From the NCBI GenBank assembly GCA_035583565.1, contig DATEUR010000036.1, forward strand, positions 1 to 39,931: DNA of 39,931 nucleotides. Reading direction: 5' to 3'. A program made the translations under genes and the position numbers. A model generated the notes under the pieces. The model did not search any database, was not told where the DNA came from, and saw nothing but the letters and a program-made list of their open reading frames with translations. Positions 21,036 to 39,931 of the stretch are shown here, piece by piece. Numbering within the stretch: position 1 is the first letter of the stretch; each line of letters begins with the position of its first letter. The stretch comes from Minisyncoccota bacterium. GTDB taxonomy: Bacteria > Patescibacteriota > Minisyncoccia > Phycocordibacterales > DATEUR01.

Positions 21036-21548
21036 ATGGCTATTATCAAACATAAAGAACAGCGAGTCGGGGTCTTCATCGACACCCAGAATCTTTACCA
21101 CAGCGCCAAAAACCTTTATAAAAGAAAGGTTAATTTTGGCGCCATTTTAAAAGATGCCCTCGCTGGCCGCAAACTCGTTCGGGCCACGGCTTACGTCATC
21201 ACAACTGAAAGTGGAGAAGAAAAAGCTTTTTTTGAAGCGCTGGAAAAACTTGGCATTGAAGCGAAAACAAAGGATCTTCAGATTTTTGCCGGCGGGGCTA
21301 AAAAAGCCGATTGGGACGTAGGGCTCGCGATTGACGCAATTAAGATGGTGCCGAGGCTTGATGTGATTGTCCTCGTGTCTGGTGACGGTGATTTTGTTCC
21401 CCTTGTTGAATATTTGAAGGGCGCTTACCTTGCCCAAGTCGAAGCGATGACATTCGGCCGCAGCGCTTCCGCCAAATTAAAAGAGGCGGTTGATGAATTC
21501 ACTGATCTTGATAAAAATCCCCGCAAATACTTGATTGGATATAAATAA
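21036..21548 (+). CDS. NYN-domain (LabA/DUF88-like) putative ribonuclease
   Basis: 170 aa with RVGVFIDTQNLYHSAK, ADWDVGLAIDA and VLVSGDGDFVPLVEYLK. Starts 3 nt after the rpsO stop. Confidence 0.85.
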   Translation: MAIIKHKEQRVGVFIDTQNLYHSAKNLYKRKVNFGAILKDALAGRKLVRATAYVITTESGEEKAFFEALEKLGIEAKTKDLQIFAGGAKKADWDVGLAIDAIKMVPRLDVIVLVSGDGDFVPLVEYLKGAYLAQVEAMTFGRSASAKLKEAVDEFTDLDKNPRKYLIGYK

Positions 21549-21579
21549 ACTGCTAATATAGCTTAGTTATAAGTAATTT

Positions 21580-21640
21580 GTTAGTCTTCGGACAGGTAGA
21601 ATTGCAAAGATTTTTGCAACTCTAAAGTCTGAAGATTAAC
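21580..21640 (+). promoter_or_regulatory. long stem-loop in the pnp leader
   Basis: GTTAGTCTTCGGAC pairs with GTCTGAAGATTAAC (14 bp including 2 G:U). It encloses a second hairpin, TTGCAAA/TTTGCAA. Confidence 0.5.
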
Positions 21641-21678
21641 ATCCTGCTTGGCAACTTGATTGCCGGCAAAAATTTAGT

Positions 21679-25095: not shown

Positions 25096-25141
25096 ATCCT
25101 TTCCCAAAAATGTTTTGGAATAATTGGTTTATAATAAAGAT

Positions 25142-26668
25142 ATGTCATTCGCGAGAGTCTCCGCTGCCCAGCCCTATTTAACGGAAGGCCGCCTCGTCAC
25201 CGTTGAGGTGGATATTTTTCGCAATTCCCTCCACAACTTTTCGATTGTTGGCTTGCCGGAAAGGGCGGTCGACGAAGCAAAGTACCGGGTTTCATCGGCA
25301 ATCAAAAATTCCGGACTGCCTTCGCCCAAAAGCAAAAACCAAAAAACTGTTGTTTCTCTTTCGCCAGCTGATCTGAAAAAAGAAGGATCATATTTCGATT
25401 TGGCGATTTCTCTCGCGTATCTCTTGGCCGACGAGAGTTTGAAGTTCGATCCCAAAGACAAACTATTTCTTGGCGAGCTTAGTTTAAATGGCGATCTGCA
25501 ATCGATTAAGGGCATCCTGCCGCTTGTGATGCTAGCTAAAACAAGGGGCTTTACGGAAGTTTTTGTGCCGGCATCGAACGGCCAGGAAGCGGCGCTGGTA
25601 AAAGATATTAAAATTTTTGCTTGTCAAAAATTAAGTGAAGTTATCGAACATTTCAGCGGTGAAAAAGCGCTTCTGCCTCTGCCGCCAACTGAAATTAGCT
25701 TTGAAAAAGAAAAACCAGACTTTGATTTTTCCGACATTCGCGGCCAAGAAACGGCCAAGCGGGGTCTCGCTCTGGCGGCGGCCGGCGGCCACAATATGCT
25801 CCTGGTCGGCCCGCCGGGCACCGGCAAAACTCTGCTTGCCCGAGCTTTTTCCGGCATCCTCCCGCCGCTTGATTTTGAGAGCACGCTTGAGGTGACGGGC
25901 ATCCACTCGGTGGCCGGCGTTTTAAAAAACAATTTGATCACCCGGCCACCAATCCGCGCGCCACACCACCGCGCGAGCGCGGTATCGCTTATCGGTGGCG
26001 GGGTCGTGCCGAAACCCGGCGAAATCACTCTTGCTCATCGCGGCGTACTTTTCTTGGACGAATTTCCGGAATTTAGTCGCGATGTTTTGGAAGCCCTCCG
26101 GGAGCCGCTCGAGGAAAAGAAGATTTCGGTCTCAAGAGCCAATGGTCGCGCTGTTTTCCCGGCCAATTTTATTTTAATCGCCGCAATGAACCCTTGTCCT
26201 TGCGGCTTTTTCGGCACTGCAAAAAATTGTGTTTGCGCGCCAATGGATCTCGTTCGCTATCAGAAGAAAGTTTCGGGGCCAATTCTTGACCGGATTGATC
26301 TTGTCATCAATGTTGAAAATATTGATCATGAAAAGCTGGCGGGGGAAAAGCAAAGAGACGAAACTCTGCCGGAAAAAATAAAAGCCGCGAGGGAGAAGCA
26401 GCGGGAGCGTTTCCGTAAACTCAATTTGGATTCTTTAAAAACAAACAGCGACATCACCGCCAAGGAAATTGATTCGGTAATTGAATTATCAAAAGGAGTC
26501 CGCGGCCTTCTAAATGAAAGTGCTCGCAAATTCGATCTGTCGCCGCGCAGTTATCACCGCGTCCTGAAGCTGACTCGCACTATTGCTGATTTTGAAGGAA
26601 GTGAAAATATCAGCGAATCGCATCTTCTTGAAGCGCTTCAATATCGGCCGAAATACAACTTTTTATGA
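25142..26668 (+). CDS. comM: YifB/ComM-family Mg-chelatase-like AAA+ ATPase
   Basis: Starts MSFARVSAAQ. Lon-protease-like N-domain, Walker A GPPGTGKT, Walker B LFLDEFPEF, Cys cluster CPCGFFG...CVC. TATAAT (25130-25135) lies 6 nt before the ATG. Confidence 0.9.
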   Translation: MSFARVSAAQPYLTEGRLVTVEVDIFRNSLHNFSIVGLPERAVDEAKYRVSSAIKNSGLPSPKSKNQKTVVSLSPADLKKEGSYFDLAISLAYLLADESLKFDPKDKLFLGELSLNGDLQSIKGILPLVMLAKTRGFTEVFVPASNGQEAALVKDIKIFACQKLSEVIEHFSGEKALLPLPPTEISFEKEKPDFDFSDIRGQETAKRGLALAAAGGHNMLLVGPPGTGKTLLARAFSGILPPLDFESTLEVTGIHSVAGVLKNNLITRPPIRAPHHRASAVSLIGGGVVPKPGEITLAHRGVLFLDEFPEFSRDVLEALREPLEEKKISVSRANGRAVFPANFILIAAMNPCPCGFFGTAKNCVCAPMDLVRYQKKVSGPILDRIDLVINVENIDHEKLAGEKQRDETLPEKIKAAREKQRERFRKLNLDSLKTNSDITAKEIDSVIELSKGVRGLLNESARKFDLSPRSYHRVLKLTRTIADFEGSENISESHLLEALQYRPKYNFL

Positions 26669-26880: not shown

Positions 26881-26908
26881 AAAAACACCTTCTTCTGAAG
26901 GTGTTTTA
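26881..26908. terminator. bidirectional terminator hairpin
   Basis: AAAACACCTTC / ttct / GAAGGTGTTTT between convergent genes. Confidence 0.65.
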
Positions 26909-28147
26909 ATAAAGTTCCGAGAGAATCGGCCGGGCGGCGGCACCGCGGATTTCGAAGTGAAGGTGAGGCCCGGTAGAACGGCCGGTGGAGCCAGTAAGAC
27001 CAATTGTCTGGCCTTGATCAACTCGCTCACCGACGCCGACAATCGCTTTGGAAAGGTGGGCGTAGAGGGTTTGGGTCCCGTTGTCGTGAGCAATAATAAT
27101 CATTTTGCCGTAACCGCCATTCCAGCCGGCGTCTTTCGAACGAATCACTTTTCCGGCGGCGGCCGCAAGAAGAGGGGTGCCGGTCGAGGCGGCAATATCG
27201 ATGCCGTTATACGGGCCGTGAAAACCTTGGGATTTTCGCCATTTTGAATTCGGGCCAACTGGCCGAATATAATAGCTTGCGGCCACTGATTTGAGGGGGT
27301 TTTTGTTTTTAACGATTGGTTTTTTGGAGGTGACTGATTTGACTTCGCCGTCCGGAATGATAAGGAATTCTCCGGGGATCAATTTTTCCTCAAGACCAAG
27401 ACCGTTGAAACGGCGGATTTCAGAAACATCGCCATCGAATTTCTTGGCGATACTCTCAAGGGTGTCGCCTTTTTTAATTTCATATTGAACGCCAGTGATT
27501 GGCAAAATAATCAGGGTGTCGCCGACTTTGAGCTTGCTGCTATCGAGATCATTCGCCCAAATAATGGTATTTGTGGAAACATCATACATTTTGGCGATCG
27601 CCGCCAGCGTGTCGCCTTCGCGGACAACATAAAGACTGATTTGTCCGTCGGAAAAATCTTCTTCGCCAAGATCGGCGGCCGTACCCATTGGCCCGATGAC
27701 AGGCACCAAAGAGCCGTCGGTTTCAACGGCCAAAGTGTTGTCGCTTGTTTCGCCTGCGATCGGAGAAGAAAAACCTTCAAGAATCGGCAAGGTTTGGGTA
27801 TTTGGCTTATTAAGCCCGTCGTCAGTTTGGGCCTCGGCTTGCTTGGCAAAAGACAAAAAGCCGGCTTCCGCTCGGTGGACGGGTAAAATAAGGAAAAGAA
27901 ATAGAGGCGCGAGTATTGAAAACGCCAAAAATAAAGGTTTTTCTGGGGCCTGTTTTGAGGTAGGCCCTCGTTTTGTTTTGAGTAAAATAAGCCTAATTTG
28001 ATTTCGTTTGGTCTCTGTTTTTCGGCAAAAAGTGCCTTTTAGAGGGGAACCAAACGAAGTTACGGATTTGCTGTCAATCCGGAAAAGCCAGTATTTCCAA
28101 GGCTTTTTCGGAAAATCTGCCGTTTCAGTCAGCTGTAAGGATAACAA
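26906..28147 (-). CDS. M23-family peptidoglycan endopeptidase with two LysM domains
   Basis: 413 aa with a TM helix (PLFLAFSILAPLFLFLILPV). LysM repeats (YVVREGDTLAAIAKMY..., YEIKKGDTLESIAKKF...). M23 motifs HGPYNGIDIA and GPHLHFEI. The first ~60 aa are atypical and the start is uncertain. Confidence 0.85.
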   Translation of the reverse strand: MLSLQLTETADFPKKPWKYWLFRIDSKSVTSFGSPLKGTFCRKTETKRNQIRLILLKTKRGPTSKQAPEKPLFLAFSILAPLFLFLILPVHRAEAGFLSFAKQAEAQTDDGLNKPNTQTLPILEGFSSPIAGETSDNTLAVETDGSLVPVIGPMGTAADLGEEDFSDGQISLYVVREGDTLAAIAKMYDVSTNTIIWANDLDSSKLKVGDTLIILPITGVQYEIKKGDTLESIAKKFDGDVSEIRRFNGLGLEEKLIPGEFLIIPDGEVKSVTSKKPIVKNKNPLKSVAASYYIRPVGPNSKWRKSQGFHGPYNGIDIAASTGTPLLAAAAGKVIRSKDAGWNGGYGKMIIIAHDNGTQTLYAHLSKAIVGVGERVDQGQTIGLTGSTGRSTGPHLHFEIRGAAARPILSELY

Positions 28148-28291: not shown

Positions 28292-30175
28292 ATGGACTAT
28301 TTAAAGGGTTTAAACGAGGAACAGCAAAAGGCGGTCCGGTACATTGATGGACCGCTTTTAATTGTAGCCGGCGCGGGGACTGGTAAAACGAAGACTTTGA
28401 CCGCCCGTATTAGACATTTGATTGAATCCGGTGTCAATCCTAAAGCGATTCTCGCCATCACTTTTACAAACAAGGCCGCCGGCGAAATGCGTCTGCGGCT
28501 CGATCCTTTCCTTGAGGGCTTTTCTGAACGGCCGTTTATCGGCACTTTTCACTCGCTTGGCGTCAAAATTCTGCGGGAGCAGGCTCACGCCGCCGGCCTT
28601 ATTCAAAATTTTGCCATTCTTGATGAAGAAGACGCCCTCGCTATCTTGAAAGACGCTCTTCGCGAAGCTGGTTTTGATCCGAAGCAAATCGAACCGAAAA
28701 AAATCAAATCAGTCATCTCCTGGCAGAAAAATCATTTCGTTTCCAGAGAAGATTTTGCGAGCCGAGCCGAGGAGTTTCTTGACGAAGTTGCCGTAAAAGT
28801 TTGGGAAAGATATGAGGCCAAATTAAAAAAAGAAAGAGCGGTTGATTTTGACGACCTTTTAATCCGGGCAACAAAACTTCTGGCGGAAGAAAAGGTAATC
28901 CGCGATCACTACGCAAATTCTTTCCAGTATATTAACGTCGACGAATATCAGGACACCAATGTCGTGCAGGACAAATTAATCAGGCTGCTTTCCCCGCATG
29001 GGCGGGTGGCCGTTGTCGGCGATCCTGATCAAGGGATTTATTCCTGGCGCGGCGCCAATATCGTTAATATTTTAAATTTTGAGAAAAATTTTCCCGGGGC
29101 GAAAATAATTTTTTTAGAGGAAAATTACCGCTCGACTAAAATAATTCTTGAGGCCGCCAATAAAGTCATAAAGAAAAATGTTTGGCGGCAAGATAAAAAT
29201 CTCTTTACCCGAAGCAAACTTGGGGAACCGATTACGCTTTTCGAGGCGTTTGATGAAAAAGAGGAAGCAAATTTTATTGTCCGGAAAATTTCGGAGTTAA
29301 AGCCAAATCTTAGCGAGGTGGCGGTGCTTTACCGGACTAATTGGCAATCGCGGATACTTGAAGAAACGATGCTCCGGGAAAATATTCCTTACGAAGTCAT
29401 TGGGGTTAAATTTTTCGCGAGAAAAGAAATTAAGGATGTTCTTTCTTTTATCCGCGCGGCCATTAATCCGGAGAGCTTGAATGACATCAAACGGATCATT
29501 AATTTGCCGCCGCGGGGCATTGGGAAAGTCACGCTTCTTAAAATTTTTGCCGGCAAAATAAACGAATTACCCGCAAAAATGCAGGAGAAAATAAAGATTT
29601 TTTACGAATTACTGGCGGAAATTAAGCGCTTCTCGGAAAATCACGCCCCGGCGAACACAATAAAATTCATCATCAAAGAAAGCGGTCTTGAGAAATGGCT
29701 TTCAGAGGGAAATGACGAGGATTTGGAGCGTTTGGCGAATATGAAAGAATTGGTGAGTTTGGCGAAAAAATACGACTTTTTAGGCGGGGAAGTGGGTATT
29801 TTAAAACTTCTTGAAGACGCCGCGCTCTCTGTCTCTGAAGAAACGAGTGAAGAAAATAAAAACGGCATAAAATTAATGACTGTTCACGCCGCCAAAGGGC
29901 TTGAATTTGACACGGTTTTCGTTACCGGCCTTGAAGAAAATTTATTTCCTCACAAGCGCCGAGAAGAATCGACTGATCTTGAGGAGGAGCGCCGACTTTT
30001 TTATGTCGCCATTACTCGCGCTCGCGAACGTCTTTTTCTTTCTTTTGCCGATTACCGGACAATTTTTGGCGGCCGGCTGGCCGGCTACCCTTCAGAATTT
30101 TTGGCCGATCTGCCGCCGGAAAATTTGGTTTTGGAGAAGGGCGAGTATTTAAAAAATATTTCTTATGATGAATAA
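28292..30175 (+). CDS. UvrD/PcrA/Rep-family SF1 DNA helicase
   Basis: 627 aa with Walker A GAGTGKTKTL, DEYQDTN, GDPDQGIYSWRGA, YRS, TVHAAKGLEFD and LFYVAITRA. Confidence 0.9.
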   Translation: MDYLKGLNEEQQKAVRYIDGPLLIVAGAGTGKTKTLTARIRHLIESGVNPKAILAITFTNKAAGEMRLRLDPFLEGFSERPFIGTFHSLGVKILREQAHAAGLIQNFAILDEEDALAILKDALREAGFDPKQIEPKKIKSVISWQKNHFVSREDFASRAEEFLDEVAVKVWERYEAKLKKERAVDFDDLLIRATKLLAEEKVIRDHYANSFQYINVDEYQDTNVVQDKLIRLLSPHGRVAVVGDPDQGIYSWRGANIVNILNFEKNFPGAKIIFLEENYRSTKIILEAANKVIKKNVWRQDKNLFTRSKLGEPITLFEAFDEKEEANFIVRKISELKPNLSEVAVLYRTNWQSRILEETMLRENIPYEVIGVKFFARKEIKDVLSFIRAAINPESLNDIKRIINLPPRGIGKVTLLKIFAGKINELPAKMQEKIKIFYELLAEIKRFSENHAPANTIKFIIKESGLEKWLSEGNDEDLERLANMKELVSLAKKYDFLGGEVGILKLLEDAALSVSEETSEENKNGIKLMTVHAAKGLEFDTVFVTGLEENLFPHKRREESTDLEEERRLFYVAITRARERLFLSFADYRTIFGGRLAGYPSEFLADLPPENLVLEKGEYLKNISYDE

Positions 30176-30224
30176 TCAGCTAACAAAAATTATCAAGTTA
30201 ATTTTTGTTAGCTATCCACAATAT

Positions 30225-31148
30225 ATGGAAACAAAAGCGAAAAAATCTCTTGGGCAACACTGGCTTAAAGAAGAAAAATATTTGGACCTAATTGTCGACA
30301 CGGCTGATCCGACCGCGGATGAGATTGTTTTGGAAATCGGGCCGGGCACAGGATTGCTCACTGAAAAACTTCTCAAACTTGCCGGTAAAGTCATTGCCGT
30401 TGAAAAAGACCATGAATTAGTTGACTCGCTTCGAAAAAAGTTTAAAGAAGAAATCAAAAATAGCAAAATCGATATTATAGAAAAAGATATTTTAGATTTT
30501 GATCCCACTTCCTGTTTCTCGTCGTCTCGCGAGTTTCCTCGACCCAAGGGAGCCGAAAGATTGGCCGTCTCACCTCCCCAGCCGTTAGGGAACGGTTCGC
30601 CAGCCAATCCTTCGGCTCTTTCACCGGCTCACAAAAAATCTTCTTATAAAATCGTCGCTAATATTCCTTACTACATCACCGGCGCCATTCTCAAAAAATT
30701 TCTCACGGCCGGCCATCAGCCCGAGAAGATGGTTCTTTTGGTTCAAAAAGAAGTGGCGGAAAGAATTGTCGCCCGCGATGGTAAAGAAAGTATTCTCTCC
30801 ATATCGGTTAAAGTTTACGGTAAGCCGCGGCTCGTTCTCAAAGTGCCGGCCGGCGCCTTCTCGCCGCCGCCAAAAGTTGATTCGGCGATCCTAGAAATTA
30901 AAAATATTTCCAAAAATTTCTTTACCAAGGAAAAAATCGAAGAAAAAGCTTTCTTTCGGGTAGTTCGGGTCGGCTTTTCGAGCAAAAGAAAAACTTTGCT
31001 TAACAATTTAGGCGCGCTTTTCGGCCGAAAGGAGACGCAAATCGGCTTGAAAAACTGCCAAATCGCCGAGAATACTCGAGCGGAAAGACTTACCCTTCCA
31101 AATTGGCTTTGTATCACTAGGGAATTCACAAAAGCCGCTAAGAAATAA
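30225..31148 (+). CDS. rsmA: 16S rRNA (adenine1518/1519-N6)-dimethyltransferase with an internal insert of about 30 aa
   Basis: Starts METKAKKSLGQHWL. SAM motif LEIGPGTGLLT, ANIPYYIT and PPKVDSAIL. Pro/Ser/Gly-rich insert SCFSSSREFPRPKGAERLAVSPPQPLGNGSPANPSALSPAH. The track ORF's upstream extension (30165) is rejected. Confidence 0.9.
   Translation: METKAKKSLGQHWLKEEKYLDLIVDTADPTADEIVLEIGPGTGLLTEKLLKLAGKVIAVEKDHELVDSLRKKFKEEIKNSKIDIIEKDILDFDPTSCFSSSREFPRPKGAERLAVSPPQPLGNGSPANPSALSPAHKKSSYKIVANIPYYITGAILKKFLTAGHQPEKMVLLVQKEVAERIVARDGKESILSISVKVYGKPRLVLKVPAGAFSPPPKVDSAILEIKNISKNFFTKEKIEEKAFFRVVRVGFSSKRKTLLNNLGALFGRKETQIGLKNCQIAENTRAERLTLPNWLCITREFTKAAKK
30550..30618. repeat. 16-nt inverted repeat with a nested hairpin inside the rsmA insert
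   Basis: GAGCCGAAAGATTGGC (30550-30565) and GCCAATCCTTCGGCTC (30603-30618) pair at 15 of 16 positions. Inner hairpin CCGTT aggg AACGG (30582-30595). The segment is G+C-rich within an AT-rich gene. Confidence 0.8.
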
Positions 31149-31161
31149 CAGAAAAGTGGGC

Positions 31162-31167
31162 TATAAT
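31162..31167 (+). promoter_or_regulatory. -10 box 7 nt upstream of the first ATG of the envelope operon (leaderless geometry)
   Basis: TATAAT then taacagt ATG (31175). Confidence 0.4.
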
Positions 31168-31174
31168 TAACAGT

Positions 31175-31582
31175 ATGAAGCGAATGCTAACTTTGTTATT
31201 TGCGTTGGTTTTCTTTGTTGGGGTTTTAAGCGTTGCCGAAGCCGCCAGTTTTTCGTTATCTTTCGGCGGTAGATTAAGCAACGGCAGCGAAACCGAGGCC
31301 AAAAAGGTGTGGGCAAAATTGATCGCCGGCTTTACCTGTAACATCGACGGCCAGACTTTTGATATTATCAAAAAATCACCGCCAATCGCGCCATCCGGCC
31401 CTTATCTTGTTTCTTTCGATCAACTGGCAAAAGCTGGCAATACTTTAAGAGTTGGCCAACAAGTGCTGGGCCGCTATAACATTATTCGTTCGCCGGTTGC
31501 GACTTGTACAAATGAAGAAGGCGCCACGGTCATTGTCTACGGTTATAAAGTGACTTTGCAATTTGGGGTTTCTAAAATTTAA
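31175..31582 (+). CDS. small secreted protein (hypothetical), operon gene 1
   Basis: 135 aa with signal peptide MKRMLTLLFALVFFVGVLSVAEA and two Cys residues in the mature part. Confidence 0.7.
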   Translation: MKRMLTLLFALVFFVGVLSVAEAASFSLSFGGRLSNGSETEAKKVWAKLIAGFTCNIDGQTFDIIKKSPPIAPSGPYLVSFDQLAKAGNTLRVGQQVLGRYNIIRSPVATCTNEEGATVIVYGYKVTLQFGVSKI

Positions 31583-31585
31583 ACT

Positions 31586-32440
31586 ATGAACAACTATCTT
31601 CCCAGTAAAAGATTTCTCATTTTTATCGCCATTATTGCCGGCGGCGCTTTAATTTTTCTTGTTGGCAGTTATCTCGTCAACAAAAAACAGGAATTTGCCC
31701 AAAAAAGTTCGCCGATCACTGCCGATAAATCTCTTCTCGAAAATCTTTTTGACAAAGACTCGGACGGCGATGGCCTCAAAGACTGGGAGGAGGTGCTTTG
31801 GGGCACCGATCAGGAAAAAGCTGCCACTTTTGATGAAATCCTAGATCTAGCTTGGGTAGAAAGCCGGCAAAAAGAAATTGCGGGTAGCAACGGAATTACC
31901 GCAAGCGATGAAAATGGCGAAGAAAATCAAACCGATAAATTTAGCCGGGAACTTTACGCCACTTTAGCCGCGTTGGAAGCCGAAAATGTTGATCAAACAA
32001 CAATTTATGATATTTCCGCCAATTTGGGAACGGCCATGTTTGATAGCGAACTGCCTGATTATTTCAAACAAGTCAAAATCGGATCGATTTCGGAAGAAAC
32101 GTATCTGGAAAATTTGGTAAATTCGATTGAAAAAGCCGGCGACATTGGCAATGAACTGGCGGTTATCGGCGCGGTTACGGCCGGCGAAGAAAGCCCGGAA
32201 AAAATTGTCGGCTTTGCGGGTAGCTATAAAGATTTGGCTAATGAATTAAGCAATTTAATCGTGCCTGAAGGTTTGTCGGCTTTTCATCTTAGTTTGATCA
32301 ATGACCTCTATAAAGTCGGCCTCTCTCTTGATTCCTTGGCCAAAACAACGTCTGATCCGATAGTCGGCCTCATCGGTCTTGCCCAGTACCAAAAATACAC
32401 GGAAAGAATTGAGGAAAATATGGATAATATCGTTATTTAA
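31586..32440 (+). CDS. N-terminally anchored protein with a Ca-binding-like DxDxDG motif (hypothetical), operon gene 2
   Basis: 284 aa with TM helix FLIFIAIIAGGALIFLVGSYLV, then DKDSDGDGLKDWEEVLWGTD. The 3-nt gap to gene 1 supports co-translation. Confidence 0.7.
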   Translation: MNNYLPSKRFLIFIAIIAGGALIFLVGSYLVNKKQEFAQKSSPITADKSLLENLFDKDSDGDGLKDWEEVLWGTDQEKAATFDEILDLAWVESRQKEIAGSNGITASDENGEENQTDKFSRELYATLAALEAENVDQTTIYDISANLGTAMFDSELPDYFKQVKIGSISEETYLENLVNSIEKAGDIGNELAVIGAVTAGEESPEKIVGFAGSYKDLANELSNLIVPEGLSAFHLSLINDLYKVGLSLDSLAKTTSDPIVGLIGLAQYQKYTERIEENMDNIVI

Positions 32441-35058
32441 TGAATAATTTGGTCAAAAAATTTATCGCGGTTTTGATTGTTGTTGGTCTTAATTTGCCGA
32501 CGGCCAGTATTGCCTTGGCGCAAAGCAATTTCACGCCTTCTTCTGTAAATCCTTCCGGTTTTAAGCCTACCGCCGCTAATCTTAAAGCTGACCTGGCTGG
32601 CACAGAAGATCTCTGTAAACTTGATTTCTTGAATAAAGGGGTGACCAAATTAAAAGGCTTGCTTAAGAAAAAAGATGAAGTAGCAGAGATATCACCTGAG
32701 ATAAATGAAATTGGAGAGGTAGCAACCGAGGCAAGTGAGCTGGAAACTCATGTCTGGGTTACTAATGACGACTTTGCCTTTCTTCCAAAAATCGACGCCA
32801 GTACAAAGCAATCGGCAAAAGACACGGCTCGTCTTCGAAGTAAAGCTTTTTGCCTTGATGGTCTGGCGACAATATTAATTCGGACAATGCTTCAACACGT
32901 CACTAATTCAATCGTTGATTGGATTAACAACGGCTTCGAAGGCGACAACGGCGAGCGGGCGCCACTTTTCGTTTCTGATACCCGATCTTTTTTCAATACC
33001 ATTGCTCAAGCGGAAATCAACGCCTTTGGTCTTGAACTCAATAATTCCAAAAATCCTTACGCCCGGGGATTTATGACAAGTCTTGCCCAAGCTCTCCAGA
33101 ACAGATTTGAAGACAATGCCCGCTATTCTTTCAATGAATTAATGAGCGGCGGCATAAGTGGCGCCGGACTTGGTATTACCATTGCTGATTTCCAGCGGGA
33201 TTTCACCTTGGGCGGCTGGGAAGCGTGGCTTGCGCTGACTCAAGTGCCTTACAACAATCCAATCGGGGCCGAAATCGAATTTTCCCGAGAACTTGGCACA
33301 CGACTGCGCGGACTTTATCAAAATAATCTTGAACAAGCCCGGGCTGAACTTACGGTCACTGGGGGCTTTCTTGGCGACGAACGGTGCATTGATAAGGGCA
33401 AAAAGAAAGTTACCCGGCGTCAAGATATGCAAGCCCGAGCTCGAGATCCAGAAGAATATGCAAAGAAGCCACTTTGCCCGAGTGGTCAGTTCCAGTATGT
33501 TACGCCGGGCCAATTTATCGCAAGCCAAGCTAATCTGGCCAACTCTTCGGTTCTTCGACAATTTGAAATGGCTGATAGTTTGACGGATGCTCTTGCCGCC
33601 ATTTCCGACGCTTTAATTAATCAACTTACTAAAACAATGACCGAGGGCTTCTTTGAACCAATTGAAATTAATACTTCTGGTTTCCAACTAGGAATCAGTC
33701 AACCAGAAGGCAATCAATACATTCCGCCGCTTTACCAAAACAGCGATTGGTTCTTGGCCCATCCGGATTTCGATATTACCAAAGGCATCAGTCAGGCGAT
33801 TATCGACGAGCAGAGAACGATGAAGAGCAAATTGGAGGAACAAAATAAGGAATTGCTGGATTTAATTAAGTGGATCAGACAACTTGATTATTGCGTGCCG
33901 GGACCGAGTTCGGATTGGGAAACAAGAGCTAATGAATTACTTAGCCAAGAGATTGAGCTTATACCTCCTTTTGATACCTGGCTTGGTAAAAAAGAGAAAA
34001 CGCTTGATCAGATTGTCGGTTCAATGGCTCTTGCTGGCGCTGGCATTGGCGCGCTAGTTGGATCACTCACCGTGGTTCTCATACCGGTCGGCGCGGCGGT
34101 TGGCGCAATAATTGGAGCAGTAGCAGGTTTCTTAGTCAATATCTTCGGCAACCAAATAAATGATAAAGACATGGCGAATATCGTTGCTGTCTTTTTAGGC
34201 GCTTTATACGACATTCACTTCATGCCTTCGGTAGAACTGATTAGTGGCGGTGCTGTTGTTAGTGTATTGTCAGATACTTTGGAGAGCTATCGAGAAATTA
34301 TCGAAAAGACTTATTTTGACCCCGCTGATCCGCTAAATATCATGCCGACAGTAACCCCAGAAGCGAGAACAGCATTGGCAGAAATTATCGGCTACGATCA
34401 GATGATGAATAAGAATCTTGAAAGAATATCAATAACAACAAATGTCATTAATAATCTGACGGATCTCAAGGAAAAATTGGATCTTTTAGTGCCAAAATAC
34501 AATCCAGCCGATCCAGCCGTTGTTCAGCAATTCAAAGATTTCGGCGCCTTGTTTGCTCGCTTAACTAACAACATGGCTTCTGGTGATGATATTGCTGAAG
34601 TTGACGATCTTCTTAAACAGATTAAAGATAAACGCGATTATGTTAAAGATACCTTGGTTGGCAGTTGCGAATCTGAAATAGCGAAACTTAGCGCTGATAA
34701 TCCTGCTGTTTATAAGACTTACGTCGGGCGGCGACCCTATCCGATTGGCCAGATTGACCATCCTTATGCCGACCCACCCGGCCGAGACCTTGGATTTCTG
34801 TACTACAACACTTTCCATTCATCATGGGGTCCTTCTTCAGGGGTTACTACTGGAAAATGTACGCCACCACTTTCTGGTTTACCAGCGGTTCACACCACCT
34901 TCGATAATACACTGCGTTTAGATATTGATCATTCGGGGACTGATTGCAGTGCCTCTTTGTGGAAGAAAGATTTTTGTCCTTTGCCGTCAGGAGCGCCTGG
35001 GCCAAATAATTGTGGCTCGGTGTCTCGTCGCTTTGAAGGATTAATGGGTATGTATTAA
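32440..35058 (+). CDS. large secreted/membrane protein (hypothetical), operon gene 3
   Basis: 872 aa with signal peptide ...PTASIALAQS, a large ectodomain, a Gly/Ala-zipper hydrophobic hairpin (SMALAGAGIGALVGSLTVVLIPVGAAVGAIIGAVAGFLVNIFG) and a Cys-containing C-terminus. Its start overlaps the previous stop (TAATG). Confidence 0.8.
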   Translation: MNNLVKKFIAVLIVVGLNLPTASIALAQSNFTPSSVNPSGFKPTAANLKADLAGTEDLCKLDFLNKGVTKLKGLLKKKDEVAEISPEINEIGEVATEASELETHVWVTNDDFAFLPKIDASTKQSAKDTARLRSKAFCLDGLATILIRTMLQHVTNSIVDWINNGFEGDNGERAPLFVSDTRSFFNTIAQAEINAFGLELNNSKNPYARGFMTSLAQALQNRFEDNARYSFNELMSGGISGAGLGITIADFQRDFTLGGWEAWLALTQVPYNNPIGAEIEFSRELGTRLRGLYQNNLEQARAELTVTGGFLGDERCIDKGKKKVTRRQDMQARARDPEEYAKKPLCPSGQFQYVTPGQFIASQANLANSSVLRQFEMADSLTDALAAISDALINQLTKTMTEGFFEPIEINTSGFQLGISQPEGNQYIPPLYQNSDWFLAHPDFDITKGISQAIIDEQRTMKSKLEEQNKELLDLIKWIRQLDYCVPGPSSDWETRANELLSQEIELIPPFDTWLGKKEKTLDQIVGSMALAGAGIGALVGSLTVVLIPVGAAVGAIIGAVAGFLVNIFGNQINDKDMANIVAVFLGALYDIHFMPSVELISGGAVVSVLSDTLESYREIIEKTYFDPADPLNIMPTVTPEARTALAEIIGYDQMMNKNLERISITTNVINNLTDLKEKLDLLVPKYNPADPAVVQQFKDFGALFARLTNNMASGDDIAEVDDLLKQIKDKRDYVKDTLVGSCESEIAKLSADNPAVYKTYVGRRPYPIGQIDHPYADPPGRDLGFLYYNTFHSSWGPSSGVTTGKCTPPLSGLPAVHTTFDNTLRLDIDHSGTDCSASLWKKDFCPLPSGAPGPNNCGSVSRRFEGLMGMY

Positions 35059-35065
35059 AACAAAA

Positions 35066-36232
35066 ATGATCAAAAAAGTTCAAAATTTAATAGTCTTGAT
35101 TTTGGTCTTTACCGCTTTGCCGACTTTCGTTTCAGCCCAACTTGAGGTTGCTTGTCCGCCAAGTCCAGCCACTGATTGCCCGACGACACTCGAGGCCACC
35201 GACCGCACATCAACAAAGGTGCGGCTTGGCGGGCAATTTACGATTGCCGGAAGCAAACCGACTTCAGGCTACTTCCGCTACACCGATTCTTTCCCGCCGC
35301 CGGTTTTCTGCAAAGAAATTTACGGCAGTGATATGTTTGCCACGAGCGAAATCGGTCTCGGCAGTATCAATGGCGGAAAGCAATGGAACCAAGTCGTCAG
35401 CGGACTCGAGCCAGAAATACTCTATTCTTTCTGCGCGATTGCCTCGGACAGTGGAGCGATTCACTACGGCGACGTCAAAACTTTCACTACCCTGCCGGCC
35501 GGCTGCGATGATCCAACCAATTGCCCTTTTGTGAAAGTCACCACTAAAAATGCCTTTGCGATTACCAACACGACAGCCTATCTTTCCGGCAGTTTTGAGA
35601 ACACGGTTGCCGGCAAGGTTTGGTTTGAATACGACACCGCCGGCGCCTCCGGTAATCCGAAAGAAACAGCCAAAAAATCAATTGGGCTAACCCCCGGCAA
35701 CGGCGATTATAAGCCACAGATTACCAACCTTGCCACCGGCACCACTTATTACTTCCAAATGGTCGGCGAAGAGGATGCCACCGGCAATATCACTACTGGC
35801 AATGTTCTAAATTTCACGACCACCGGCAGAAGTGTCGGCCCAGGTCCAGGACCCGGGCCAGGGCCCGGACCGGGACCGGCTATTCCTAACGCTTACGTCC
35901 GCCTAAACGAGGGGGTGGAACACGTGCTTATCCGTCAGTTAAGCGTGGACGAACCGATTCTAAAGGAGTTCGGCTATACTACTAATCAGGACAGAGGGAA
36001 TTTTGTAAATAACTTGGCTCATAATTTTGCCACCCTCTTTGGCTACTTTAATCCGACCACAAAAGAAGAGGTGCGGGTGCGTTTCCCGGATGTCGCCGCC
36101 TACGTCATCCGTAAATTCAACAATCTTTTCTTTATTGATGAGTACCTGACAACGCAGTTCCTCGACACCCGCTCGGCCGGCCAAGGATTTAAATCACCGC
36201 TTCGCGCCTTCGAATATTTATTCAAAAAATGA
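35066..36232 (+). CDS. secreted two-domain beta-sandwich-like protein with a (Gly-Pro)7 linker (hypothetical), operon gene 4
   Basis: 388 aa with signal peptide ...TFVSAQ. Two Fn3-like modules end in ...FTT (the second contains WFEYDT). Then GPGPGPGPGPGPGP and a ~110-aa C-domain. Confidence 0.8.
   Translation: MIKKVQNLIVLILVFTALPTFVSAQLEVACPPSPATDCPTTLEATDRTSTKVRLGGQFTIAGSKPTSGYFRYTDSFPPPVFCKEIYGSDMFATSEIGLGSINGGKQWNQVVSGLEPEILYSFCAIASDSGAIHYGDVKTFTTLPAGCDDPTNCPFVKVTTKNAFAITNTTAYLSGSFENTVAGKVWFEYDTAGASGNPKETAKKSIGLTPGNGDYKPQITNLATGTTYYFQMVGEEDATGNITTGNVLNFTTTGRSVGPGPGPGPGPGPGPAIPNAYVRLNEGVEHVLIRQLSVDEPILKEFGYTTNQDRGNFVNNLAHNFATLFGYFNPTTKEEVRVRFPDVAAYVIRKFNNLFFIDEYLTTQFLDTRSAGQGFKSPLRAFEYLFKK
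35837..35878 (+). repeat. imperfect hexanucleotide (GGNCCN) tandem repeat encoding (Gly-Pro)7
   Basis: GGCCCAGGTCCAGGACCCGGGCCAGGGCCCGGACCGGGACCG. Confidence 0.9.
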
Positions 36233-38736
36233 AAAACAAAGGACTAAAAATTATCTTTGTGCTCGTGCTTCTCGCAATCGCTTTGTCGCCCTTGCCGAGT
36301 TTGGCGCAAAATCAAGCGCCAACTTACACAAAATCAGAGGCTGAAGTCCAGCAGGAAGCAATTAGTAGGTTTACTGACAACTTCGAATGCTGGGGCGGAA
36401 TAACCGGGGGATTCAATGTTGCTGCTTGCACGGCCTTATTCACTTATTATGTTCTTTTCGTACCGACAAGTTTCATTTTAGCAATAACAGGTAAATTATT
36501 TGATCTTCTTCTTTTCTTTACGATAGACAGCGCTAGTTATTCCGGGGTTTATTCCCAATTTATTACCGAGGGTTGGCGGATTTTACGCGATCTCGTTAAC
36601 ATTGCTTTTATTTTGATTCTTTTATCACTAGGCATAAAAATTATTCTTGATCTTAAAGCCGCGGAGGCCAAAAAAATGATTGGCGCGGTCGTCATTATCG
36701 CTCTTCTTATTAACTTCAGTTTGTTTTTCGTTCGGGTGATCGTTGACGCGGGTAATGTTTTAGCTCATGTCTTTTATAACGCGACAGTCGCCACTACTGA
36801 TCCGAATTACTTGGGTTCAAAATCAATTTCGACGACTTTAGTTAATGCCTATAACCCCTCCAGGATATTTCAGGCTTTTCACCGTCAAAATCAACTTAGC
36901 GTGACTTTAGACAGAGGAGACCCTAATGCCCCGATCGTTGACCTCGTAAAAAGAGAAGGGGCCAAAACAGGTGCTACCAACAGCAATCAGTACGCTGGTT
37001 TCTTCATTCTTTTTGCTCTCTTAGGCACGATTTTAAATGTCGTAACAATTTGGATTTTTCTCATGGTTTGCCTATTGTTTCTTGCGAGAACCGTCGGTCT
37101 TTGGCTTGTCATGATTTTCGCGCCCATTGCCTTTATTTCTTACATTGTCCCGAAAGTGGAAGGATTTAAAACCGGCTTTGGTCACCGAGACTGGTGGATG
37201 GATCTTTTGAAATACACTTTACTTGCCCCAATTTTTGTTTTCTTTCTTTATCTTGTTGCTATGTTTTTGAATCTAGGGGCAATAAAAGATATTTTAAGCG
37301 CGGAAACCTCTTCAACGCTGCAGAAGGTATTGGCCATTATGTTTCCCTTTTTCGTGGTCATCGCCATTCTGCTTCGTGCTAAAAAGACCGCCGTCGAACT
37401 CGCTGGTAAACTCGGCGAAACAATCATGGCCGCCGCGCAGAAAGTGGTCGGCGTCGCCGGCGGCGCGGTGCTCGGCGTCGCTGGTTTTGCCGGCCGGGCG
37501 GTAATTGGCCGCGGGGCTGAAGCCGCTTTAGGCGGCCGAGCGGCGGCGGGAGCTATGGTCGAAGAAGAAGCAATTCGTCGCCGACGTCTGGCAGAACTAG
37601 GCGTCACCGGCGCCGCCGCCGAAAGAATGGCGCCGACCGGATTAAAACCGGGCGAGACTTCGCCTTACGGAAAGAAAGAAGAGCAAGTGGTTACCCCACC
37701 GACGGAGGCAAAAGCGCCTGTCGAAGAAACGCCGGAAGAAAGAGCAGTCGGCCGGTACGAAAAAATTATTACGGCCAAAGAAGAACAAAAGAAGAAAAAC
37801 GAGGCGGCGGTCGCGGCTGGCACGATGGGTTACCAAGCCTCGCAGAGAGAAAACAAGGCAATTGATACTGATATAAAAGAGGCCCAAGCTAAAGTGACAG
37901 AACTAAAAGCTCTACCCAAAAAGAAAAAAGAAGAGGTGGAAGAAGAAAAAGCGCCGCCGAGAGGCAAAACCATTAAAGACCGGGCCGCGGAAGGTGGTGT
38001 CAGAGGTTGGCTCGCGCAAAAAGGCGTCAAAATGCTCGCCGGCGCTTACACCAGAAGCTGGGATCCACGCGCCACTTGGGGCAGTAAACAAATTGAAAAA
38101 TATTTTGGCCTTAATTTTGGCAAACCGAAAGGCAAAGGCGGCTTCAAGGCGGCGCAGGACGCGCGAATCAAATCGGAACTTGAATTCGCAAAACTTTTGG
38201 AACCAAGCCCGGTTGAGCTTTTTCACCTCCGCCGCATTGGCAACACCTTAAATGACATGAAGATCGGGATGAAGCGTTATAACGCCAAGGATTTGTTTGA
38301 ACATGATGATAAAGGCAAGATGAAAAAGGATGCTGAAGGAAACAAAATCACCAGAGCTGGCGCCGATATGAATTTAGTAAATTCTTACAATAATTTGGAA
38401 TCACAAATCGCCAAGTGGCAAAAGTCTTACGATACGGAAAAGAAAAATATGGACGATATTACCGCCACTCGCCTCAATAAATACGCCCGGGTCGCGGGAT
38501 CGGGGAAGGGTATGAATTTTGTCATCAATATGGCGACCATGGGCAAATTCGGCTCGGCGCAAGGCCAAGAAGCCGCCCACCGCATCAGAGAAGCGATTGG
38601 TAAAGGCGGGGTTAGAGTGGAAGACTCAGTTGATGCAATTATGCGGGAATTAAAAGAATTCAAAAAAGAAAAAGAGCAAAAAGCAAAGGAAAAACCGGCG
38701 CCTAAACCAAAAGAGGAAAAAAAGGAGGGGGTCTAA
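36229..38736 (+). CDS. polytopic VirB6/TrbL-like membrane protein with a long charged C-terminal tail, operon gene 5
   Basis: 835 aa with a signal/TM start and about 8 hydrophobic helices over the first ~430 aa (for example FFILFALLGTILNVVTIWIFLMVCLLFLARTVGLWLVMIFAPIAFISYIV). A ~400-aa Lys/Glu/Ala-rich tail follows. Its start overlaps the previous stop (ATGA). Confidence 0.75.
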   Translation: MKNKGLKIIFVLVLLAIALSPLPSLAQNQAPTYTKSEAEVQQEAISRFTDNFECWGGITGGFNVAACTALFTYYVLFVPTSFILAITGKLFDLLLFFTIDSASYSGVYSQFITEGWRILRDLVNIAFILILLSLGIKIILDLKAAEAKKMIGAVVIIALLINFSLFFVRVIVDAGNVLAHVFYNATVATTDPNYLGSKSISTTLVNAYNPSRIFQAFHRQNQLSVTLDRGDPNAPIVDLVKREGAKTGATNSNQYAGFFILFALLGTILNVVTIWIFLMVCLLFLARTVGLWLVMIFAPIAFISYIVPKVEGFKTGFGHRDWWMDLLKYTLLAPIFVFFLYLVAMFLNLGAIKDILSAETSSTLQKVLAIMFPFFVVIAILLRAKKTAVELAGKLGETIMAAAQKVVGVAGGAVLGVAGFAGRAVIGRGAEAALGGRAAAGAMVEEEAIRRRRLAELGVTGAAAERMAPTGLKPGETSPYGKKEEQVVTPPTEAKAPVEETPEERAVGRYEKIITAKEEQKKKNEAAVAAGTMGYQASQRENKAIDTDIKEAQAKVTELKALPKKKKEEVEEEKAPPRGKTIKDRAAEGGVRGWLAQKGVKMLAGAYTRSWDPRATWGSKQIEKYFGLNFGKPKGKGGFKAAQDARIKSELEFAKLLEPSPVELFHLRRIGNTLNDMKIGMKRYNAKDLFEHDDKGKMKKDAEGNKITRAGADMNLVNSYNNLESQIAKWQKSYDTEKKNMDDITATRLNKYARVAGSGKGMNFVINMATMGKFGSAQGQEAAHRIREAIGKGGVRVEDSVDAIMRELKEFKKEKEQKAKEKPAPKPKEEKKEGV

Positions 38737-38777
38737 ATAAACTAGGATTTAATCGCTAAATTGATTAAAATTAAACT

Positions 38778-39803
38778 ATGGCTGATGAGGAAATAAAAAC
38801 AAATCCTGCGAATAGCGTCCCGGCGGAAAAATCATCCGACGAACTTTTGCGCGAGCATATCAATACCCTGCCAAAAGCAGTGGTAGATTCGATTTTAGAT
38901 TTCAAGTGGGACGAAGCGGTGGCAAAAATTGGCAAAAAATACGGCCTCCACATCGATCAAATGGGTGTTTTACGCTTCGAGTCGCTCGCCGCCTCCTCCG
39001 GCCTCACCAGTCCGGCTGATTTTTTCCCAACAATAAAAAGCAAGTTGAATTTAAGCGACGAACAAGCGGTCAACTTGACGAATGACGCCAACGAAGAGAT
39101 TTTCTCCATTATCAGAAAAAATATTCGGGAAAAAATGGGGGAATCAAAAACCGAAGCGGGAGAATTAAAAGAGGCGGAAATATCCCCGGAAGAAAAAGAA
39201 TCAATCCAAGCGGTCGGCGAGCGGTTTAATGATTTGCCCGATGGGGTCCAAGAAGCGATCATCGCGCCGGATCTGCCCGAAAAAATTGATCTCTTGGCCC
39301 GCGAGTATGGCGTCGACCCGGCCAAACTTGACGGCCTCGTTTCTGTCGTTCTTCTTGGTATTGCCGATCCGGACAACTTTGATCTTGAATTAAAAAACGC
39401 TTTTGGTCTTACTGACGAGAAAGCGAAAGTGCTTGCCGCGGCAACAGAGGAAGCAATTTGGAAAAACATTAAAGGAAAAATAAAAGAGGTGATTGCCAAG
39501 GAAGAGATGGCGAAAAAAGTTGAAGGTGTTTTTGTAAAACTTGATCAAGAAAAATATGGCACAAAAACAATTAGCGCCCTCGAGGAAACAAAAGCCGCCG
39601 AAGTAGCGAGGAAAACTTTGCTTGAAGAAAAACTTAAGGGCCAGTTTAGCCTCCCGGCAAGCCAAAGCGTCGTCGCGCCGCCAATTGGCACTGCTCCCGC
39701 GGGACTGCCACCTATCGGCAAGCCGGCGGCGCCAAAAATCCCGGTGGCTCCGCCAACCGCCCCCGCCCCTCAAATTGATCCTTATCGGGAAAAGCCTATC
39801 TAA
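38778..39803 (+). CDS. acidic soluble protein with an internal domain duplication and a Pro-rich C-terminus (hypothetical), operon gene 6
   Basis: 341 aa with no TM helix. Two related ~90-aa modules (GKKYGLHIDQMGVL...LNLSDEQAVNL...EEIFSIIRKNI and AREYGVDPAKLDGLV...FGLTDEKAKVL...EAIWKNIKGKI). The tail reads ...PPTAPAPQIDPYREKPI. Confidence 0.7.
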   Translation: MADEEIKTNPANSVPAEKSSDELLREHINTLPKAVVDSILDFKWDEAVAKIGKKYGLHIDQMGVLRFESLAASSGLTSPADFFPTIKSKLNLSDEQAVNLTNDANEEIFSIIRKNIREKMGESKTEAGELKEAEISPEEKESIQAVGERFNDLPDGVQEAIIAPDLPEKIDLLAREYGVDPAKLDGLVSVVLLGIADPDNFDLELKNAFGLTDEKAKVLAAATEEAIWKNIKGKIKEVIAKEEMAKKVEGVFVKLDQEKYGTKTISALEETKAAEVARKTLLEEKLKGQFSLPASQSVVAPPIGTAPAGLPPIGKPAAPKIPVAPPTAPAPQIDPYREKPI

Positions 39804-39809
39804 AATATT

Positions 39810-39931
39810 ATGCAATTTCGCGTTCCTCAATTTATTGATATCGAAGACAAGATTTTCGGCCCCTTTACTTTCAAGCAGTTTGTCTATCTCTTGGGCGGGG
39901 TCGGGATAAGCTACATTCTCTACAGATTGCT
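39810..39931 (+). CDS. PrgI-family (VirB3-like) T4SS membrane protein, N-terminal fragment (continues past window end)
   Basis: MQFRVPQFIDIEDKIFGPFTFKQFVYLLGGVGISYILYRL matches the N-terminal motif and TM start I recognise for PrgI-family proteins. It begins 6 nt after the previous stop. Confidence 0.7.
   Translation, partial: MQFRVPQFIDIEDKIFGPFTFKQFVYLLGGVGISYILYRL

Follow-up and report, generated by a model that had tools for sequence, protein, structure and literature searches.

A large part of bacterial diversity belongs to the Patescibacteria, and no type IV secretion system (T4SS) other than theirs is known to be essential for the growth of the bacterium that carries it. An unusual T4SS gene cluster, SEML1_0006-0019, was described in Southlakia epibionticum by Wang et al. 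2023 (PMC10633639). The Southlakia system is nearest to the conjugation systems of Gram-positive bacteria, has no recognisable relaxase or coupling protein, and its genes, including those for the pilins, are essential for epibiotic growth. The published table for this cluster lists PrgI, a DUF87 VirB4, TrbL-like proteins, NTF2-like proteins, and T4SS pilins. The sequence considered here is the 39,931 bp contig DATEUR010000036.1 (positions 1 to 39,931, assembly GCA_035583565.1) of a Minisyncoccota bacterium, the whole of which is referred to as the window. Towards the end of the window, at 31.1-39.9 kb on the + strand, there is a block of six complete open reading frames (ORFs) followed by the start of a seventh, which is compared here with the Patescibacteria T4SS and with other described systems.

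A survey of 2,474 virB4 genes (Quinonero-Coronel et al. 2025; PMC12102498) recognised a clade of Patescibacteria VirB4 that is related to MPF_FATA, with TrsD, VirB3, VirB6, and VirB2-like pilins encoded near virB4 and almost no relaxases. The same survey found ksgA, dnaA, and related genes to be common neighbours of virB4 in Paceibacteria. The T4SSs of the Patescibacteria were presented as a new T4SS type in a 2025 review, and a 2026 preprint reports that tubular structures, which may be T4SS pili, are seen where a cultivated member meets its host.

It is probable that the block in the window is the promoter-proximal half of a chromosomal T4SS of this Patescibacteria type, from an uncultivated bacterium of the Paceibacteria (Parcubacteria; Candidate Phyla Radiation, CPR). 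The genes are named g1 to g16 by their order on the + strand, with g1 to g7 in the window and g7 cut by the window end. An earlier note on this DNA had read the block as a T4SS-derived apparatus. This is supported by the presence of a VirB4 gene downstream, by a PrgI protein that passes its family cut-off, indirectly by a VirB6-like protein, and by the lack of mobility genes. The note had also implied that a relaxase-free chromosomal T4SS would be new, which is not the case, as the class was published in 2023-2025, including the position beside ksgA/rsmA. The locus adds no new kind of system and a specialist would find the cluster unsurprising. It does offer a clear case from the Paceibacteria, whose defined set of conserved genes can guide annotation and the choice of targets for AlphaFold-Multimer, cryo-ET, and genetics, and the residual novelty lies in the Paceibacteria-specific partner set and in the g6 family.

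The genes that follow the window end can be read on a longer public contig. There are 18 public contigs with a gene for the g6 protein, and one of these, L001 (55 kb), has 0 mismatches to the window over the 10.5 kb compared. The 40 residues of g7 that are present in the window score 27.1 bits against Pfam PrgI (PF12666), just over the cut-off of 27, and the full protein on L001 also passes (Table 1), thus the PrgI assignment made in the earlier note stands. The protein is small, has a transmembrane (TM) hairpin at residues 27-66, and is encoded near virB4, all of which are features of the PrgI/VirB3 family.

The gene after this, g8, matches the NCBIfam models VirB4_plasma over positions 103-233 (E 1.8e-8) and TrsD (E 9.4e-7), with scores that do not reach the cut-offs for full-length proteins. 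Its precomputed annotation is Pfam TraC-like and it lies beside virB4, where Patescibacteria T4SSs usually have TrsD. The VirB4 ATPase that the earlier note expected downstream is encoded by g9. It passes the CD1110 family model, although it matches this model at positions 183-733 only, and it is also related to the VirB4 crystal structure PDB 4AG5 (3e-39) and to Pfam P-loop_TraG (98.8 bits). By the CD1110 and 4AG5 matches g9 is a clear member of the VirB4 family. Its sequence retains Walker A (AKSGSGKS) and Walker B (LLVVDE) in intact form, and the median identity to the VirB4 of 64 Paceibacteria loci is 76%. At 685 amino acids it is longer than most of its relatives (approximately 610 amino acids), the surplus being an Ala/Glu/Lys-rich C-terminal tail. 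VirB4 is split into g8 and g9, resembling the TrsD/TrsE arrangement of pGO1.

The VirB6 assignment of g5 is less direct. The protein has a signal peptide, approximately six to seven TM helices (residues 64-430), and a 400-residue hydrophilic C-terminal half rich in K, A, and E; this combination is in keeping with the "extended VirB6" type presented in a 2025 review. Searches of Pfam and NCBIfam with g5 itself gave no match, TrbL (PF04610) being absent even at E<=1. There are 130 homologs of g5, and those with a named source are unannotated Patescibacteria proteins, mostly from Paceibacteria. Pfam TrbL/VirB6 is matched by 5 out of 46 sampled members of this family (E<0.01). The homolog P0106 (E 3e-14 to g5) passes the TrbL model with a score of 29.7 (cut-off 25.9) over residues 156-365, a region that overlaps the alignment of P0106 to g5 residues 81-313.

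The AlphaFold2 model of g5 has pLDDT values of mostly 74-94 over residues 60-400, falling to 51-58 in a loop at approximately 220-250. The top Foldseek match for this model in the PDB is 8rtd_L, a 268-residue chain of the R388 stalk-arches-inner membrane complex (probability 0.98, E 0.035, TM-score 0.38), followed by Legionella DotA (probability 0.80, E 0.045, low TM-score). Based on chain size and the published composition of the R388 complex, 8rtd_L is most likely TrwI/VirB6. Taken alone, the fold is only suggestive. Among PDB sequences, a profile of the g5 TM domain found nothing and the full-length profile returned low-complexity coiled-coil noise only. Alignment of the g5 profile to the single PrgH sequence by hhalign gave E 0.004 with a probability of just 8%, in a comparison where the control of a known relation failed too. 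It is through the intermediate P0106, the topology, the weak fold matches, and the position before VirB3 and VirB4 that g5 is accepted as a putative VirB6-like protein; the part of the earlier claim that would require a direct TrbL match is not upheld.

Beyond virB4, L001 carries four genes, g10 to g13, before the cluster resumes with g14. No counterpart of g10, g11, or g12 was found in any of 80 related loci, indicating that g10-g13 are an insertion of approximately 3 kb specific to this genome. A calcium link between the Na+/Ca2+ exchanger encoded there and a putative calcium-binding motif of the TSP3 type in g2 is conceivable. The pilin domain of g15 is visible in the sequence as a two-TM hairpin of the VirB2 type, encoded near virB4 as expected for a T4SS pilin.

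In relatives too, the pilin hairpin sits inside large multidomain proteins (L034:17160-18746 and L066:16981-18381). Some relatives of g15 end, as judged by eye, in wall hydrolase sequences that are SLT-like or peptidase-like, and these proteins would be VirB2-VirB1 fusions.

The conservation of the cluster was assessed in a scan of one genome per species, in which at least 418 genomes encode a relative of g5. The best 80 loci were compared, with gene presence determined by tblastn (80 loci) and by de novo ORF clustering (81 loci). The counts for each gene in Table 1 are lower bounds, with contig ends cutting many of the loci. Most of the 80 loci are from genomes named as Paceibacteria, Nomurabacteria, Wolfebacteria, or Parcubacteria, and some have only generic or Saccharibacteria labels. 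The synteny check proposed in the earlier note gave a clear result: the order uvrD-rsmA-g1-g2-g3-g4-VirB6-g6-VirB3-TrsD-VirB4-g14-pilin protein is colinear and on the same strand in 80 other species-level genomes. The conserved gene set comprises 12-13 genes and no further conserved gene family appears within the 81 loci. The genes g1-g4 and g6 are conserved members of this cluster, not random neighbours. Proteins of the relatives are 27-76% identical to those of the window. Such low identities, coupled with the constant gene order, show the arrangement to be old and fixed, which argues strongly against an integrative and conjugative element (ICE) or a plasmid. Its chromosomal location is fixed, with uvrD-rsmA on one side and, in relatives, jag-yidC on the other.

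The context within the window is in agreement with this. The block directly follows rsmA and the helicase gene, with comM further upstream, as had been noted before; the PcrA/UvrD helicase gene is a conserved upstream neighbour and is outside the secretion machine. Genes further upstream encode NusA, H+-pyrophosphatase, trigger factor, ClpP, RNase Y, dihydroorotate dehydrogenase, and CCA-adding enzyme, and the window also encodes an NYN-domain protein, PNPase, a DksA-type zinc finger protein, ComM/YifB, and a LysM-M23 peptidase. The rest of the window is therefore made up of housekeeping genes.

No ORF of the window or of L001 matches a relaxase or coupling protein family in Pfam or NCBIfam, a search that covers approximately 61 kb of the genome. 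No mobile-element integrase was found, the only tyrosine recombinase being a distant XerD-like protein. Its best matches are XerD and XerC, it passes an archaeal XerA-type model, and it is most likely a chromosome dimer resolvase rather than the integrase of a mobile element. A search for direct repeats flanking the cluster returned only A-rich low-complexity matches. No tRNA gene adjoins the block, the nearest of the seven in the window being 13 kb away. The features of a conjugative element (relaxase, type IV coupling protein (T4CP), integrase with attachment (att) repeats, plasmid replicon) are thus missing from the sequence covered, as the earlier note had reported for the relaxase, coupling protein, integrase, and att-like repeats. 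What is present is a cluster free of relaxase and coupling protein genes in a conserved chromosomal housekeeping context. Identification of the block as part of an ordinary ICE or plasmid was rejected on the basis of the fixed synteny, the lack of relaxase and T4CP, the lack of att-like repeats, and the lack of an adjoining tRNA gene.

Table 1. Features of the T4SS locus and its surroundings, with positions in the window unless L001 is given, and the number of related loci in which each gene was found.
Feature	Position	Strand	Size and identification	Loci
XerD-like tyrosine recombinase gene	19758-20672	-	10.5 kb upstream of block	
comM/yifB	25124-26668			
LysM + M23 peptidase gene	26906-28147	-	3 kb upstream of g1	
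uvrD (PcrA/UvrD-type helicase)	28292-30175	+	NCBIfam pcrA 667 bits	45/81
rsmA/ksgA (16S rRNA methyltransferase)	30165-31148	+	Pfam RrnaAD in precomputed annotation	52-53/80-81
TATAAT hexamer	31162-31167	+	7 nucleotides before ATG at 31175	
g1	31175-31582	+	135 aa; ORF	26/81
g2	31586-32440	+	284 aa; ORF	57-58/80-81
g3	32440-35058	+	872 aa; ORF	65-69/80-81
g4	35066-36232	+	388 aa; ORF	57/81 by transitive clustering; 31/80 by tblastn
g5 (putative VirB6-like)	36229-38736	+	835 aa; ORF	75/81
g6	38778-39803	+	341 aa; ORF	71/81
g7 (PrgI/VirB3), in window	39810-39931	+	First 40 codons, protein start MQFRVPQFIDIEDKIFGPFTFKQF; rest cut by window end	67/81
g7 (PrgI/VirB3), complete	L001:11033-11446		137 aa; Pfam PrgI 38.2 bits, cut-off 27	
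g8 (TrsD-like)	L001 11459-14160 (with g9)		212 aa; VirB4 N-terminal domain as separate gene, directly upstream of virB4	64-66/80-81
g9 (VirB4 ATPase)	L001 11459-14160 (with g8)		685 aa; NCBIfam CD1110 family 374 bits, cut-off 325	57/81
g10-g13	L001 14190-17289		Between virB4 and g14; 327-aa protein, 209-aa coiled-coil, Na+/Ca2+ exchanger, 127-aa coiled-coil	
g14	L001, downstream of g13		326 aa; secreted protein	55/81
g15	L001 18244-20715		823 aa; Pfam T4SS_pilin 33.6 bits, cut-off 26.6, residues 584-647	47/81
g16	L001, after g15		Start only; TM segment + PG_binding_1 (peptidoglycan-binding) domain	42/81 (g16-like)
jag	In relatives	Opposite		31/81
yidC	In relatives	Opposite		22/81

This locus has much in common with the T4SSs of the Patescibacteria clade. 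As in those systems, VirB4 is accompanied by a TrsD-like protein from a gene of its own, by PrgI/VirB3, by an extended VirB6-like protein, and by a pilin domain of the VirB2 type; a relaxase and a linked T4CP are absent, and the location is chromosomal, beside ksgA/rsmA and near yidC/jag. There are differences from the Southlakia system. Southlakia has an array of small pilins, whereas here a single pilin hairpin is found inside an 823-residue protein, and the accessory set is not the same. An NTF2-like protein is present in Southlakia but no NTF2/VirB8-like protein was recognised here, and the 3-kb insertion after virB4 is a feature of this genome, not of Southlakia. The Paceibacteria-specific partners g1-g4, g6, and g14 are named in neither Wang 2023 nor Quinonero-Coronel 2025.

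With the MPF_FATA system of pCF10, PrgH-PrgI-PrgJ, the locus shares the order VirB6, VirB3, VirB4 and a VirB3 of the PrgI family; PrgJ bears the same NCBI name (CD1110-family VirB4) as g9. The likeness to prgH-prgI-prgJ that had been proposed from the window is therefore borne out on L001, with g6 and the TrsD-like g8 interposed. The TrsC-TrsD-TrsE proteins of pGO1/pSK41 share the separate VirB4 N-terminal domain of the TrsD type. Gram-positive MPF_FATA systems have PcfC/VirD4 and a relaxase, neither of which was found here, and the locus also differs from them in that neither PrgL/VirB8 nor a PrgK-type hydrolase with identifiable domains is recognised. Conversely, the pilin domain present here is lacking in the Gram-positive systems, and the cluster here is chromosomally fixed. 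Alignment of the family profiles by hhalign to the single pCF10 sequences of PrgH, the PrgJ N-terminus, PrgK, and PrgL was uninformative, and these negatives carry no weight because even the expected relation of TrsD to the VirB4 N-terminus was missed.

Read as a Patescibacteria-type T4SS, the products of the locus could act together as follows. VirB3 (g7) would anchor a hexameric VirB4 (g8 and g9) at the membrane beneath a platform of the VirB6-like g5, by comparison with the R388 architecture and Gram-positive models. The g5 platform would extract the VirB2-like pilin and build a pilus or channel across the monoderm envelope. A wall-spanning scaffold may be formed by g2, g3, g14, and g16, replacing the PrgK/PrgL-type parts of Gram-positive systems, and g1 and g4 may be variable surface or host-contact proteins that face the host. 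At the cytoplasmic face, g6 would dock by its C-terminal DPYRE peptide as an adaptor or regulator where the coupling protein is lacking. The machine would serve episymbiosis, through host contact and delivery into or extraction from the host cell, rather than conjugation. Effector delivery or the extraction of host material, the latter including the feeding on host RNA proposed in the 2026 preprint, fits better than DNA uptake as its task.

Several points weigh against the reading as a Patescibacteria-type T4SS, or limit parts of it. The search for relaxase and T4CP genes reaches only the 61 kb mentioned above, and unlinked copies may be present elsewhere in the genome. A single transcript for the block is plausible only. 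The proteins g1-g4, g6, g14, and g16 are without a recognisable family or fold, and their proposed roles follow from topology, position, and conservation. Within the core, g5 has no direct Pfam TrbL match of its own, its fold matches are statistically weak, and the identity of 8rtd_L as TrwI/VirB6 was deduced from its size. Finally, the essentiality of the T4SS is known from Saccharimonadia only, whose accessory set differs, and its extension to this genome would be by analogy.

It is highly improbable that the locus is instead a conjugative or mobilising T4SS, either an ICE remnant or a chromosomal transfer system, that exports DNA using a relaxase and coupling protein encoded elsewhere. The VirB4 is a member of the CD1110 family, typically found in conjugative elements of Firmicutes, the VirB6-VirB3-VirB4 order resembles that of pCF10, and in many Patescibacteria genomes VirD4-like genes are far from virB4. 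However, the search of 40 kb upstream and 11 kb downstream found neither a relaxase or T4CP nor a mobile-element integrase or direct repeats at the flanks, and the position and order beside uvrD-rsmA are constant across species with proteins of just 27-60% identity, unlike those of mobile elements. Relaxases have been found in just 103 Patescibacteria genomes, with 15 relaxase genes near virB4, and in Southlakia an unlinked T4CP is non-essential while the T4SS genes are essential. The suggestion that the pilin merely builds an adhesion organelle, with VirB2-like pili holding the epibiont on its host and nothing being translocated, is improbable as well. Such an organelle would account for a pilin domain within the cluster, for the essential pilin arrays of Southlakia, for the absence of a T4CP, and for g4 as a variable FN3-like surface protein. 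Saccharibacteria, on the other hand, already adhere by type IV pili. The pilin hairpin here is embedded in the multidomain g15 rather than being a free small pilin, and the wall-hydrolase-like C-terminal domains of g15 relatives fit the assembly of a channel.

An import machine, taking up DNA in the manner of ComB or Ced or acting as a conduit for host RNA or cytoplasmic material, is unlikely, although there is more to be said for it. CPR bacteria are without nucleotide synthesis, and the 2026 preprint reports host RNA uptake together with possible T4SS pili at the host interface and ties a monophyletic VirB4 to macromolecule transfer, yet the preprint itself leaves the uptake mechanism unresolved. 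The absence of a coupling protein is as expected where no export substrate is recruited. The ComB system of Helicobacter pylori and the Ced system of Sulfolobus likewise have a VirB4-family ATPase without a relaxase or coupling protein and are chromosomal. ComB, however, is a diderm system with the outer-membrane parts B7, B9, and B10, which are absent here. No product matches the VirB8, VirB9, or VirB10 families at Pfam or NCBIfam thresholds (for VirB7 a usable model is lacking), and there is no ComB7/9/10 core alongside ComB4/6/8. The match of g9 to the archaeal DNA importer CedB is weak (31 bits against a cut-off of 700; E 7.7e-8) and generic to the ATPase domain. PNPase, RNase Y, and comM are within the window, but comM, PNPase, and the other RNA genes are housekeeping genes outside the block conserved in relatives. 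According to the 2025 review, competence in Southlakia depends on ComEC, with type IV pili also implicated. Deletion of comEC leaves Southlakia viable, so that the essentiality of the T4SS is not explained by ComEC-dependent DNA uptake. With no B7, B9, or B10 and with competence separable from T4SS essentiality, the ComB-like DNA uptake role put forward in the earlier note is disfavoured and is the least likely of the cargo options.

The protein between VirB6 and VirB3 deserves separate consideration. In 71 out of 81 loci g6 is found between these two genes, and in Paceibacteria this is always its position. It has no TM segment and is presumably cytoplasmic, with two copies of a helical domain of approximately 100 amino acids, a disordered Pro-rich linker, and DPYRE at its C-terminus. 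Family members have one to three copies of the helical domain and a disordered linker, and the motif D-P-Y-[R/H]-E stands 2-6 residues before the C-terminal end. A C-terminus of this type is present in 42 out of 45 syntenic homologs and in 132 out of 151 top representatives. The family has 1,935 representative sequence clusters (E<=1e-3). A word-indexed search for homologs of g6 returned just 4 proteins, one of them P0230. No relative of the family was found in Pfam, NCBIfam, or the PDB. The DPY[RH]E tail makes this family a concrete candidate for the missing cytoplasmic adaptor.

It is possible, although doubtful, that the Paceibacteria T4SS has an undescribed module of its own. This would be composed of an outer set of g2, g3, and g4, sometimes with g1, for which no relation to known T4SS parts was detected, and of g6, whose DPY[RH]E tail would dock on the VirB3/TrsD/VirB4 energy centre as a substrate gate replacing the coupling protein. 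If true, this would be a novel way to select substrates, or to import, in a T4SS on which CPR episymbiosis probably depends.

Two further observations relate to g6. In P0230, a 277-residue protein from a JGI contig, an SLT_2-type N-terminus is followed by a sequence 97% identical to the C-terminal half of g6; the two meet at a shared YGVDPA motif, and the protein is most likely a chimera produced in assembly. The PrgI of Southlakia, at 300 amino acids, extends at its C-terminus into a helical part that might correspond to g6 in fused form.

A family name is lacking for g1-g4 and g6, five of the seven genes of the block. The earlier note was correct in finding these genes impossible to name, Pfam and NCBIfam giving sub-threshold matches at most. 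The first of them, g1, has no match in Pfam or NCBIfam; it has a signal peptide or hydrophobic N-terminus and two conserved Cys residues, and is seen as a variable accessory component, a small secreted protein. The g2 protein is bitopic, with an N-terminal TM segment at residues 5-33 and a C-terminal domain without a match among known families. It contains the Asp-rich TSP3-like motif DKDSDGDGLKDWEE, a putative calcium-binding site that scores 19.3 bits against Pfam TSP3_bac (below the cut-off of 25). Residues D58, D66, W67, E69, and W72 are invariant among 40 homologs, and the g2 family profile found no relative among PDB sequences. As a bitopic and a secreted protein, g2 and g14 are candidates for VirB8. 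The profiles of g8 and g14 also found no relative among PDB sequences, and hhalign of g2 with PrgL aligns the TM segment only.

The largest product, g3, has a signal peptide, a large extracytoplasmic region predicted in a low-confidence model to be mainly helical, and a Cys-containing C-terminal part. A glycine-zipper TM pair is present at approximately residues 525-571 (Pfam Gly-zipper_Omp 23.8 bits, below cut-off). There are 107 homologs with many invariant residues, those of named source being unannotated Patescibacteria proteins, mostly from Paceibacteria. The AlphaFold2 model has a mean pLDDT of 59; Foldseek against the PDB gave nothing better than E 0.078, and a PDB profile search found no match. 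The Foldseek matches are generic helical bundles, which were dismissed as meaningless given the low pLDDT. Overall, g3 is a lineage-specific conserved envelope partner without a recognisable fold. The g4 protein has a signal peptide, two FN3-like beta-sandwich repeats (pairwise E 0.003 for the internal repeat), a (GP)7 linker, and a conserved C-terminal domain of approximately 110 amino acids. It has a weak match to the FN3-like Pfam Pur_ac_phosph_N (21.2 bits, below cut-off). Protein size is very variable across the g4 relatives, which suggests that g4 may be a variable adhesin-like component for surface or host contact.

The tight packing of g1-g7 on one strand is confirmed. The six junctions are a 3-nucleotide gap, a 1-nucleotide overlap, a 7-nucleotide gap, a 4-nucleotide ATGA overlap, a 41-nucleotide gap, and a 6-nucleotide gap, and on re-checking these and the ORF positions match those of the earlier note exactly. 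Its count of eight genes, seven of them complete, is too high, as its own six junctions imply seven genes. Likewise, the six products said to have a signal peptide or TM segment are confirmed by a simple hydropathy scan, but out of seven rather than eight, g6 being the sole exception. No + strand terminator-like site was found between genes of the block, in line with the lack of internal terminators reported previously; the total of 27 such sites is not clearly higher than in shuffled sequences (19.1, sd 4.4). No Rfam element was found within the block. That the block is on one transcript is plausible from this arrangement. As rsmA ends just 26 nucleotides before g1, the transcript may begin upstream of g1, and co-transcription of rsmA with the block is possible.

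The TATAAT hexamer before the first ATG is where the earlier note placed it, but it has no value as evidence of a promoter. The window has 17 copies of TATAAT with 17.1 expected, a promoter scan found no -35 partner for this copy, and the gene caller on L001 puts the g1 start at 31184 as an alternative to 31175. For these reasons the promoter reading was rejected, the hexamer being at chance level.

Other features of the window lie outside the cluster. Genes for RNA metabolism are found upstream (8450-9970, 17792-19252, and 21036-23856), encoding RNase Y, CCA-adding enzyme, the NYN-domain protein, and PNPase. These are outside the block conserved in relatives and are of interest only given the 2026 preprint on feeding on host RNA. 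The gene for the LysM and M23 peptidase falls at the edge of the 10-kb flanks examined in relatives. Peptidase_M23 and LysM were reported in the 2025 survey as extra domains in some VirB1-like homologs. The cumulative GC skew has its minimum near 16-17 kb, where gene orientation turns from - to +, which may reflect only coding-strand bias. The seven tRNA genes cluster in this part of the window, at approximately 10.5-17.8 kb. The jag-yidC pair that is beside the cluster in relatives is the usual neighbourhood of the origin.

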